Shown: positions 1,826 through 3,456 of the stretch, piece after piece
Layout: each line of letters begins with the position of its first letter
Position numbering within the stretch: position 1 is the stretch's first letter
Assembly (NCBI RefSeq): GCF_003018255.1
Contig: NZ_CP027440.1
From: Escherichia coli
GTDB taxonomy: Bacteria > Pseudomonadota > Gammaproteobacteria > Enterobacterales > Enterobacteriaceae
DNA: 64,000 bases
Strand: one strand, 5' to 3'
The notes under the pieces: generated by a model
What the model was told of the DNA's origin: nothing
What the model saw: the letters and a program-made list of their open reading frames with translations, nothing else
Databases searched by the model: none
Made by a program: the position numbers and the translations under genes

Positions 1826-1841
1826 GCTTTTAACAGGCAAT

Positions 1842-1870
1842 AAAAAACCGCCGAATCTGGCGGTTTTTTA
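1842..1870. terminator. bidirectional rho-independent terminator after sseA
   Basis: A-tract, GC stem aaccgcc/ggcggtt with loop gaatct, then T-tract (aaaaaaccgccgaatctggcggtttttta). Symmetric, so it can terminate either strand. Confidence 0.75.
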
Positions 1871-2034
1871 TTGCTGGTCTGGTTCGCGGCCTTTCCAGCA
1901 GATTGGCTTGTGTTGCATGAGCAACGCAGGTGCTTCACAGCAAAGCAATACTCGCCAGTAACTCTCTTTTTGTCAAGCGAAAGAGAGTAATCATTGTTTA
2001 TTTAGCGTATTATCGACACCGGCCCTTTCCGCCG
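1871..2034. repeat. tandem repeat unit 1 (degenerate copy of the ryfA upstream module)
   Basis: Blocks ttgctggtctggttcgcggcctttccagcagattg (1871-1905) and caatactcgccagtaactctctttttgtcaag (1946-1977) plus downstream ...gtattatc...cctttccgccgt recur almost identically in unit 2, about 322 bp away. Confidence 0.8.
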
Positions 2035-2154
2035 TGTTCGGTAATAAAATAACCTAGCTTATTAGTCCGAATTCAGACAAATATAAACAAATCCTGCTCA
2101 AAATTAAAAATACTAACCGGTAAAAGATATTACTTAAACATGTAAATTCACTTT

Positions 2155-2198
2155 CCTTTAAAAAACAAAAAACCGCCAAAATCAGGCGGTTATTTGTT
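2155..2198. terminator. bidirectional rho-independent terminator inside the sseA-sseB intergenic region
   Basis: aaaaaacaaaaaa-accgcc-aaaatca-ggcggt-tatttgttg. The minus-strand T-tract (TTTTTTGTTTTTT) is stronger than the plus-strand one. Confidence 0.65.
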
Positions 2199-2265
2199 GC
2201 TGGTTTGGTTCGCGGCCTTTCCAGCAGATTGTATTACCGTAGTAATGCAAGCGCGTCTCAGCGGA
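2160..2265 (-). ncRNA. candidate divergent antisense sRNA (antitoxin-like) to the ryfA small-ORF mRNA
   Basis: Inferred. Minus-strand -35-like TTGACA (complement of 2293-2298) and strong minus-strand terminator at 2155-2198. Sequence 2247-2263 (gcaagcgcgtctcagcg) is identical to 2407-2423, so a minus-strand RNA across 2247-2263 would pair perfectly over 17 nt with the plus-strand ryfA transcript. Ends are approximate. Confidence 0.35.
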
Positions 2266-2357
2266 CACAATACTCGCCAGTAACTCTCTTTTTGTCAAGT
2301 AAAAGAGAGTTATTATTGTTCTGTTAGTGTATTATCCACTGCGGACCTTTCCGCCGT
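2196..2357. repeat. tandem repeat unit 2 (upstream module of ryfA)
   Basis: Near-identical to unit 1 in the two conserved blocks (2196-2230 and 2268-2299). The segment between the blocks differs between units and carries the 17-nt match to the ryfA body. Confidence 0.8.
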
Positions 2358-2646
2358 CTCGCAAGCGGGCGCTGGCTTAAGGAAAGGATGTTCCGCGACC
2401 GTTAGAGCAAGCGCGTCTCAGCGCTTGCTATCGCGGCAATATCGCCAGTGGTGCTGTCGTGATGCGGTCTTCGCATGGACCGCACAATGAAGATACGGTG
2501 CTTTTGTATCGTACTTATTGTTTCTGGTGCGCTGTTAAGCGAGGTAAATAATAACCGGAGTCTCTCCGGCAACAATTTACTGGCGGTTAACAACCTTCAG
2601 AGCAGCAAGTAAGCCCGAATGCCGCCCTTTGGGGCGGCATATTTTA
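2343..2646 (+). ncRNA. ryfA: RyfA-like RNA (likely mRNA for a small hydrophobic protein)
   Basis: Position between sseA and sseB; -10-like TATTAT at 2330-2335; strong terminator at 2619-2647; predicted length about 304 nt fits the RyfA size I recall. Boundaries inferred, not measured. Confidence 0.45.
2487..2612 (+). CDS. small hydrophobic protein, 41 aa (type I toxin-like, TimP-like candidate)
   Basis: Hand-translated ATG..TAA ORF: MKIRCFCIVLIVSGALLSEVNNNRSLSGNNLLAVNNLQSSK. Hydrophobic N-terminal stretch about 15 aa, polar N/S-rich tail. Sits inside the putative ryfA transcript just before its terminator. Weak Shine-Dalgarno; below the 60-aa cutoff of the ORF track. Confidence 0.4.
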   Translation: MKIRCFCIVLIVSGALLSEVNNNRSLSGNNLLAVNNLQSSK

Positions 2647-2647
2647 G
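2619..2647 (+). terminator. rho-independent terminator of the ryfA transcript (overlaps sseB stop codon)
   Basis: Stem atgccgccc/gggcggcat (9 bp), loop tttg, followed by attttag on the plus strand. Confidence 0.7.
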
Positions 2648-3420
2648 ATTATCCGGTTCTGTTTAAAGTCACGCAAAAAACCACCCCAGCGACGTTCATA
2701 GAATGGCGCAATATGTTCGGTAATAAAGTGGCTAATTCCTTTTTCCCCTTTTTTCACCTGACAAATATCGATGGGTTCATCGCCAGGTAATGTATCGGTC
2801 GCTACACTTCCCGCCGCCTGAATAATTTCTTCGATATCACCATCGGCTTCAATGCCAATAAGTAAATTAGGCTGTGCCTCTTCGTTCTCTTTAATTGAAC
2901 AAATAAAAGCACGCTTCACCGGCTTAATAGTTTTAAATAAGGTGGTGAGTGAATCAATCATTTGTGCTGGTGGCTCTGCGACTTCCGATAATATCAGCGA
3001 TTCACCGCCTTCCAGTACTTCCTGGCTGCTCAGCGGATTTCCTTCTTCACCAATCAGCAAACTGATTTCACGCGGCATAAATTCTTTACCGGTTGGCAGT
3101 TTGGCATTAAGGAAGAGCGTTTCGCCAAGGGTCATCTCAAACAATGTGCGAACGGGCATTACGACAAATGCCTGTTCGTCTTCAACCGCCTGTTGAAGTG
3201 CTTCTAACGAGGTAAAAAAAGGAATGACGCTGGTGCCGTCTTCTTTTTCCCAGTGCTGTAAATCAAGCGCGCTATCTTCAACCACAGCCTCGCCCTGCGC
3301 CGCCGTACCCGGCACCCAGACGGTGGATTCCAGTAGAGTACGGAAAAAGGCCGGGCGGTGCGCCGGTTCGGTTGCTGCTTTTTCCAGCAGGTCTTCAAGT
3401 TCGTTTTTTGTTTCGGACAT
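2644..3420 (-). CDS. sseB: rhodanese-enhancing protein SseB
   Basis: ORF track 2644..3429 begins with a GTG; start moved to ATG at 3418-3420 (MSETKNELEDLL...), giving 258 aa. Confidence 0.9.
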   Translation of the reverse strand: MSETKNELEDLLEKAATEPAHRPAFFRTLLESTVWVPGTAAQGEAVVEDSALDLQHWEKEDGTSVIPFFTSLEALQQAVEDEQAFVVMPVRTLFEMTLGETLFLNAKLPTGKEFMPREISLLIGEEGNPLSSQEVLEGGESLILSEVAEPPAQMIDSLTTLFKTIKPVKRAFICSIKENEEAQPNLLIGIEADGDIEEIIQAAGSVATDTLPGDEPIDICQVKKGEKGISHFITEHIAPFYERRWGGFLRDFKQNRII

Positions 3421-3456
3421 AAGAACCACAATTCATTCAACGTTCGGGGCACAAGT

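Follow-up and report, generated by a model that had tools for sequence, protein, structure and literature searches.

A probable timPR toxin-antitoxin locus at the ryfA region of Escherichia coli

Introduction

The E. coli transcript historically called the ryfA sRNA raises a question: is it a non-coding RNA, or is it the messenger for a small membrane toxin? The stretch of E. coli DNA analysed here (the window, 64,000 nucleotides) carries a ryfA transcript with a small open reading frame inside it, which a first-pass annotation made from the sequence alone had proposed to encode a homologue of the Salmonella protein TimP.

The timPR system has been described in three papers (Andresen et al. 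2020, PMC7667032; Eleftheraki & Holmqvist 2024, PMC11228461; Eleftheraki et al. 2026, PMC13000454). Salmonella TimP inserts into the inner membrane, with which it fractionates, and makes it leaky on overproduction, as judged by the entry of propidium iodide; mutation of its start codon abolishes both protein and toxicity (PMC7667032). E. coli hosts are also killed by Salmonella TimP (PMC13000454). Translation of the Salmonella mRNA is turned on and off by a pseudoknot and a structural switch, without RNA processing (PMC11228461, PMC13000454). The timP gene was formerly known as ryfA in E. coli K-12, and every member of the Rfam ryfA family retains the ORF (PMC7667032).

The reading favoured here, with a probability of about 0.88, is that window positions 2160-2646 form the E. 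coli timPR type I toxin-antitoxin locus at its conserved sseA-sseB position, and that the ORF encodes TimP. Homology, anatomy, complementarity and the conservation of every pairing were established in the present analysis. The features of the locus are collected in Table 1.

Table 1. Features of the timPR region, in window coordinates
Feature	Position	Strand	Basis or remarks
Second TimR-like gene, type B seed	1837..1948	-	plus-strand complement GCAGGTGCTTCACAGCA at 1926-1942; direct repeats D1, D2
IS128 RNA (Rfam RF00125)	2001..2209	+	258 bits; ends at bidirectional timR terminator
timR (type A), sRNA of ~100 nt, divergent from timP	2160..2263	-	5' seed 2263-2247 complementary to SL2
Putative timR promoter	2270..2298	-	sequence: -35 TTGACA (2298-2293), 17-nt spacer, -10 GAGTAT (2275-2270)
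timP (ryfA) promoter, -10 box TATTAT	2330..2335	+	sequence; 7 nt upstream of +1 (2343)
timP mRNA (= ryfA RNA), ~304 nt	2343..2646	+	Rfam RF00126 match
SL1 (transcript 4-45)	2346..2387	+	pair counts; holds pseudoknot site 1, CGCUGGC, at 2370-2376
Site 2, GACCGU (transcript 55-60)	2397..2402	+	pair counts; pairs with SL4 5' arm (site 4)
SL2 (transcript 64-87)	2406..2429	+	17-nt complement to TimR 5' end; TimR-binding site 2407-2423 (GCAAGCGCGUCUCAGCG, 'type A')
SL3 (transcript 88-121)	2430..2463	+	pair counts; loop with pseudoknot site 3, GCCAGUG, at 2444-2450
SL4 (transcript 122-141)	2464..2483	+	centroid fold; helix 6 100% paired; sequesters SD GGA at 2477-2479
timP CDS	2487..2612	+	41 codons + TAA; NF040796 match; RefSeq timP at identical coordinates
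Intrinsic terminator of timP mRNA	2619..2646	+	stem 2619-2640, 9 pairs (7 G-C), then T run; Rfam terminal hairpin

The timP ORF and its product

Both the sequence and the ORF list bear out the ORF as first annotated: it runs on the plus strand from ATG 2487 to TAA 2610-2612 and encodes MKIRCFCIVLIVSGALLSEVNNNRSLSGNNLLAVNNLQSSK (41 aa). Comparison of the peptide with TimP, which the first-pass annotation had suggested as one way to check its proposal, gave a full-length match to the NCBIfam profile NF040796, 'small toxic inner membrane protein TimP' (toxic_TimP), at 80.5 bits (E 7.5e-23; curated cutoff 45 bits). The alignment is end to end, with protein residues 1-40 on profile positions 1-40 of 40, beginning at M1 of the 41-aa form; judged by its score, the match is far beyond chance. 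The closest database proteins likewise carry the name TimP, in a word-indexed protein search that recovered Escherichia and Shigella proteins only.

Genome annotation agrees. The RefSeq/PGAP timP CDS of strain DETEC-S792 maps exactly onto window positions 2487-2612, and in strain 104 a 304-nt stretch that is 100% identical is annotated timP. The gene is annotated in 59 of 60 E. coli genomes taken as an even sample down the ranking, as well as in K-12 MG1655, and ryfA is present in 5425 of the 5426 complete E. coli genomes. The profile match, the RefSeq annotation and the published work (PMC7667032) together support the proposal that the ryfA RNA is an mRNA for a TimP homologue.

The peptide has the layout of the TimP family, which consists of a basic N-terminus, a Sec-signal-like hydrophobic segment and a less conserved polar C-terminus. 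Here a hydrophobic core at residues 5-17 (13 aa, Kyte-Doolittle mean 2.86) comes after the basic MKIR and is followed by an Asn/Ser-rich tail (mean -0.79); the TimP alignment shows invariant columns at the N-terminus and variation along the tail. The first description of a hydrophobic stretch followed by a polar tail was right in layout, but the stretch is of 13 residues rather than roughly 15. Its 'usual shape of type I toxins' is imprecise for this protein, whose N-terminus looks like an uncleaved Sec signal, unlike the helix of a classic type I toxin. For a 45-aa form, a signal prediction has been reported in a study of uropathogenic E. coli (UPEC).

Two further ORFs overlap timP, and neither has a protein-family match: a 63-aa antisense ORF with a TTG start (2402-2593, minus strand), which is probably spurious, and a 30-aa ORF in the +1 frame (2459-2551), which was dismissed.

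The ryfA transcript and its regulatory folds

The location of the ORF inside a ryfA transcript, proposed at first pass, is upheld by a full-length match to Rfam family RF00126 at 2341-2645 (312.5 bits, E 6e-87, model positions 1-296 of 296), for which the gathering score is 80 bits. The RNA folds with a minimum free energy of -130.8 kcal/mol (z = -5.65 against shuffles). Its start at 2343 was placed from the Rfam start together with the position of the ATG at +145, as in Salmonella (PMC7667032). The promoter box and strong terminator that had been seen to flank the ORF were also correctly identified: among 11 loci from several genera, nine have TATTAT at an equal distance ahead of ryfA and two have a one-base variant of it, and the 9-bp terminator stem contains 7 G-C pairs. 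The -35 element of the timP promoter is weak. A promoter-scan hit at 2292-2319 (TTGTCA-16-TATTGT) was rejected as the timP promoter, being incompatible with the transcript start.

The order sseA-timP-sseB-pepB is found here and in other genera. In the window sseA ends at 1825 and the convergent sseB occupies 2644-3429 on the minus strand, such that the end of the terminator T run overlaps the end of the sseB stop codon.

Folding and pair counts indicate that SL1-SL4, sequestration of the Shine-Dalgarno (SD) sequence, the pseudoknot and the pairing of site 2 with site 4 are all kept here in silico. In an alignment of 15 sequences, helices 1-2 of SL1 are 99-100% paired with compensatory changes, and helix 5 of SL3 is 98% paired with three compensatory pairs. 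The SL1-SL3 pseudoknot (helix 3; 2370-2376 with 2444-2450) has 7 of 7 pairs and is 100% paired, with G-U, A-U and G-C alternating at one position. Site 2-4 (2397-2402 with 2464-2469) has 6 of 6 pairs, with 100% of cells paired in the 15 sequences and one A/G-U change. Over all switch helices, 96% of cells are paired, compared with 35-50% in slid controls, and seven pairs are changed on both sides. Duplex energies are -13.8 kcal/mol for site 1-3, -10.1 for site 2-4 and -9.9 for the inhibitory site 1-2 alternative. In Salmonella timP, C57, C58 and G59 form a loss-of-function cluster (PMC13000454), and SL2 is the site to which TimR binds (PMC11228461).

The TimR antitoxin

A 17-nt sequence, GCAAGCGCGTCTCAGCG, occurs twice on the plus strand, at 2247-2263 and at 2407-2423. 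As a result, the 5' end of a divergent minus-strand RNA is a 17/17 Watson-Crick complement to positions +65..+81 of the timP 5'UTR, for which the chance at such lengths was estimated by the author at ~2e-6. The complement was taken as the longest exact match, as the long duplexes that RNAduplex predicted for the complete RNAs made no physical sense. The 5' end of this RNA was inferred from promoter geometry, and its terminator lies at 2191-2171 on the minus strand. The putative promoter scores below the promoter-scan threshold; its motifs GTCAAG and AATACTC are conserved in other genera. No Rfam family covers the RNA, even at E <= 1.

The same arrangement was found at 11 loci, from Escherichia, Citrobacter, a Salmonella-like genome and others, each with a divergent complement of +62..+83 located 91-108 nt upstream. 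SL2 and the TimR seed differ between taxa yet co-vary, toxin with antitoxin, across these loci. On this evidence the predicted minus-strand RNA from ~2263 to ~2160 is TimR (RyfB). The first-pass annotation did not notice the antitoxin, the element by which the locus qualifies as a toxin-antitoxin system. Salmonella TimR binds to stem-loop 2 and prevents TimP from being translated, as demonstrated by compensatory mutants, which restore rescue, and by in vitro translation (PMC7667032, PMC11228461).

A palindrome with perfect 12-bp arms, TAACTCTCTTTT-N8-AAAAGAGAGTTA, lies between the promoters of the divergent timR and timP genes and overlaps the timR -35 element (2281-2312, and 1959-1988 in the second module). 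Both modules and K-12 have it; O157-type strains and other genera do not. The palindrome could bind a regulator or could simply result from the divergent promoters; as it is not conserved beyond A- and B-type E. coli modules, it was set aside as an operator candidate.

A second TimR-like gene and polymorphism of the locus

The direct repeats D1 and D2 of the distal module are 86-87% identical to the proximal module. The two timR genes have core, terminator and promoter in common and differ in their 5' seed. The second gene has at most 7-9 nt of complementarity to timP, and no other complementary target was found for it in the 64-kb window. Thus, it is an orphan antitoxin here. Its cognate, timP-B, is found in strain HCM-24C-3 and in K-12.

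IS128 begins with a duplicate of the timP promoter and the first ~35 nt of the transcript (repeat D1, 1946-2035 against 2268-2357), after which its body is AT-rich. From its sequence, IS128 is probably the remnant of a second timP, a decapitated paralogue. In strain HCM-24C-3 (L009) the two modules are both complete, and between them lie a fragment of sseB and the body of IS128. In K-12 MG1655 (L016 436-1047 against window 1881-2430) the order TimR-B, IS128, TimR-A is as found here, and SL2 of timP is of type B. The adjacent TimR-A of K-12 is non-cognate (2 mismatches and 3 G-U pairs), opposite to the window, where timP-A lies beside TimR-A. Being of type B, K-12 timP is matched instead by the distal antitoxin gene, ~460 nt away.

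Three types of SL2 and TimR seed were counted in complete E. coli genomes by means of type-specific 50-mers (window 2392-2441; L016 947-996; L017 947-996): type A, that of the window, in 2992; type B, that of K-12, in 1975; and type C, that of O157:H7, in 527. The locus is polymorphic exactly at the site of toxin-antitoxin recognition. It may be speculated that this is a polymorphic 'lock-and-key' system, with three mutually mismatched types and an extra non-cognate TimR that is kept in many strains, in which the orphan TimR-B is functional; this is an unlikely proposal as matters stand. If it were true, TimR-B could provide immunity, or counter addiction, by neutralising an incoming recombined timP-B allele. 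Alternatively, it could have acquired other targets, and the ORF independence of ryfA and timR phenotypes in pathogenic E. coli would then be explained. Diversifying selection, in place of relaxed selection, might likewise account for the rapid evolution of the TimP tail, whose pN/pS is ~1.5 within Escherichia.

Two further loci depart from this arrangement. In Citrobacter amalonaticus (L008 8069-8340) the 5' end of ryfA, including SL1 and both promoters, is missing, and the plus-strand complement of the TimR core runs into SL2, as expected from a deletion between two direct seed/SL2 copies. The recognition repeat itself may therefore be a recombination substrate. At another locus (L012 1353-1652), a ryfA/timP homologue of 39 aa and a 20-nt TimR-like complement lie outside sseA-sseB, beside hha-like and umuC-like genes, which suggests that this copy is on a mobile or horizontally acquired region.

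Coding constraint and integrity of timP alleles

Cross-genus loci were gathered by profile search of protein representatives and by exact-protein look-ups. An exact-pattern scan with the SL4-plus-start motif was too strict, returning seven loci, of which one was a chance match in a MAG of no relation (L005) and the others were in Escherichia and Citrobacter.

The 41-codon ORF is intact in 10/10 Escherichia alleles, and in 10 of the 11 cross-genus loci an ORF of 38-41 codons closes just ahead of the terminator. The conservation of the reading frame on which the first-pass annotation had staked its proposal is borne out to that extent; it is qualified by truncated or IS-interrupted timP alleles, which exist in some E. 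coli and Shigella. Differences in ORF length between genera amount to whole codons, and the other two frames carry early stops. For codons 1-16, cross-genus pN/pS is 0.36-0.41, compared with 0.7-1.07 in the other frames, which at the level of sequence points to coding constraint across genera on the N-terminus. Codon-level purifying selection was not seen within Escherichia, where a small sample of 21 variable sites gives a pN/pS of ~1.1 for the whole ORF and 1.5 for the tail, values in which RNA structure may constrain the synonymous sites. The 21 sites are distributed 9/8/4 by codon position, with no enrichment at the third.

Some E. coli and Shigella TimP entries end after 23-28 residues or run into the foreign sequence GNDSNLLIVFYVQIMPDDFVMQ at a contig end (P0012, P0049, P0052, P0056-P0058; L021 1801-1938), which suggests an IS insertion after about codon 24. 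This foreign sequence may correspond to an end of IS1. In E. coli P276M (L020 1501-1666), the sole sampled genome in which timP is not annotated, the first 166 nt of ryfA are left and the 3' half is lost; the neighbouring sseB is a frameshifted pseudogene.

Regulatory RNA or toxin messenger?

The most serious alternative is that ryfA acts in E. coli mainly as a regulatory RNA, partnered by TimR and bound by ProQ, with the TimP ORF retained but contributing little; the transcript would then be at most a dual-function RNA, and its known phenotypes would be due to the RNA. In UPEC, three ryfA alleles in which the ORF is destroyed fully restore fimbriae, motility, resistance to oxidative stress and survival in macrophages. 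In avian pathogenic E. coli (APEC), a ryfA deletion is attenuated, while deletion of timR, alone or together with ryfA, leaves the strain much like the wild type; the authors of that study state that the E. coli peptide remains to be demonstrated. RyfA is bound by ProQ, and both the within-Escherichia pN/pS of ~1.1 and the tolerance of truncated alleles fit an RNA role. Searches of the literature gave no direct evidence for the production or toxicity of E. coli TimP and, with ryfA combined with ribosome profiling or initiation mapping as terms, no E. coli ribosome-profiling report that names the ORF. The ORF-independent phenotypes in UPEC, the minimal effects of timR deletion in APEC and the failure to detect a protein in Shigella dysenteriae keep a dual-function RNA a live alternative. 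On the other side, all ten Escherichia alleles, and those of other genera, retain the ORF with an invariant start codon and a sequestered SD, the indels being of whole codons, and the conserved SD-unmasking switch is sensible only if translation matters. No base-pairing target of RyfA besides TimR has been defined in the literature examined. A predominantly regulatory role is accordingly a possibility that merits attention yet is well short of an even chance, and it is compatible with, rather than exclusive of, the toxin reading.

It is far less probable that the protein starts upstream, at the in-frame ATG 2475, to give the 45-aa product (MDRTMKIR...) drawn for UPEC CFT073. This start, 12 nt upstream of ATG 2487, gives the longest ORF and is the one at which the ORF list opens (MDRT-MKIR...); the 45-aa product is annotated in the CFT073 paper, and some database entries begin at the equivalent Met (P0007, P0060). 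Against this, ATG 2475 sits in the loop and 3' arm of SL4, where it overlaps the SD and has no SD of its own. In the 15-sequence alignment ATG 2487 is invariant, while the 2475 codon is not conserved, being AAG in two other loci, one of them Salmonella-like. The TimP profile starts at the second Met and not at the 2475 Met, and the start that was mutated experimentally in Salmonella, at +145, is equivalent to 2487 here (PMC7667032).

Least probable of all is that the ORF is a never-translated by-product of structured non-coding RNA conservation, as its place in a heavily structured RNA, the lack of third-position enrichment within Escherichia and the failed protein detection in Shigella might suggest, since the Salmonella orthologue is translated and toxic in a start-codon-dependent manner (PMC7667032), the annotated frame has the lowest cross-genus pN/pS, the tails diverge beyond recognition and still stay open for 38-41 codons to stop just before the terminator in 10/11 loci, and the NCBIfam match has an E value of 7.5e-23.

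How the system would work, and what it means

On the timPR reading, the plus-strand transcript from 2343 to 2646 would be the mRNA for a TimP that has a basic N-terminus, a 13-residue hydrophobic core resembling a Sec signal and a polar, Asn/Ser-rich tail. In the default state translation would be off, with the SD GGA (2477-2479) locked in SL4. SL4 would open only in the active fold of the 5'UTR, in which the SL1-SL3 pseudoknot has formed and site 2 (2397-2402) is paired to the 5' arm of SL4 (2464-2469). Pairing of the TimR 5' end with SL2 (2407-2423) would then destabilise the active fold and block initiation. For the present E. coli allele, translation, membrane targeting, toxicity and repression by TimR are all predicted by analogy with the Salmonella experiments.

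The finding of timP within ryfA is correct yet already known: the gene was published in 2020, its switch was dissected in 2024-2026, and PGAP annotates it routinely in E. coli. As it has been both published and annotated, it is not new. Nevertheless, it illustrates that a small toxin ORF within a supposedly non-coding RNA can be recognised correctly from raw sequence, and the whole system of toxin, antitoxin and switch elements has now been placed on window coordinates. It also raises the question of whether E. coli produces TimP and is poisoned by it, and of what role the extra non-cognate TimR copies play.

Comparison with known systems

The closest likeness is to timPR of Salmonella enterica Typhimurium. 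Both loci have the same Rfam RNA family, the same sseA-sseB position and an ORF at +145, and the N-terminus MK[IV]RCFC[IV]VL[IL]VSG is conserved. In both, a divergent sRNA is complementary at its 5' end to SL2, and SL1-SL4, the pseudoknot and the site 2-4 pairing are preserved. There are differences in detail. TimP is of 41 aa here and 38 aa in Salmonella; the residues after the core and the whole tail differ (SEVNNNRSLSGNN... here, LHAD... in Salmonella), the E. coli tail (NNNRSLSGNN...) being unrelated in sequence to those of Salmonella and Citrobacter; and the sequences of the TimR seed and SL2 are not the same. The interval between sseA and timP contains an extra gene, STM2534, in Salmonella, whereas here it holds the second TimR-like gene and IS128. 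Toxicity and translation are experimental results in Salmonella, and for the E. coli allele they are assigned by homology.

In Shigella dysenteriae, RyfA1/RyfA2 and RyfB1/RyfB2 are encoded by tandem ryfB-ryfA modules (Fris et al. 2017, PMC5333039), and modules of this type account for the two TimR-like genes found here. There, ryfB (= TimR) is a divergent RNA of ~100 nt, complementary to the variable region of its own ryfA. Unlike S. dysenteriae, the window has one intact ryfA/timP copy, the other being reduced to IS128. In the S. dysenteriae study both RNAs were interpreted as non-coding and no protein was detected from RyfA1 (PMC5333039).

Among other E. coli systems, tisB/istR-1, shoB/ohsC, zorO/orzO and dinQ/agrB similarly combine a small hydrophobic toxin ORF with a divergent adjacent sRNA that is complementary to a short part of the toxin 5'UTR, a long way ahead of a structured ribosome binding site. 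In contrast to systems of the tisB/istR-1 type, the timP mRNA is activated by a purely structural switch, without nucleolytic processing, and the toxin has a Sec-signal-like N-terminus rather than a full transmembrane helix. Nor does TimP resemble toxins of the Hok, TisB, Ldr, Ibs and ShoB type, which have a single transmembrane helix of ~20 residues, no signal sequence and mRNA processing, whereas the hydrophobic run of TimP is 13 residues long and follows a basic n-region. The authors who described timP likewise noted the absence of mRNA processing and stressed that a Sec signal sets TimP apart from other type I toxins (PMC7667032). By every feature that can be tested in silico the locus is a member of timPR, a system that acts like a type I toxin-antitoxin pair and has an atypical toxin.
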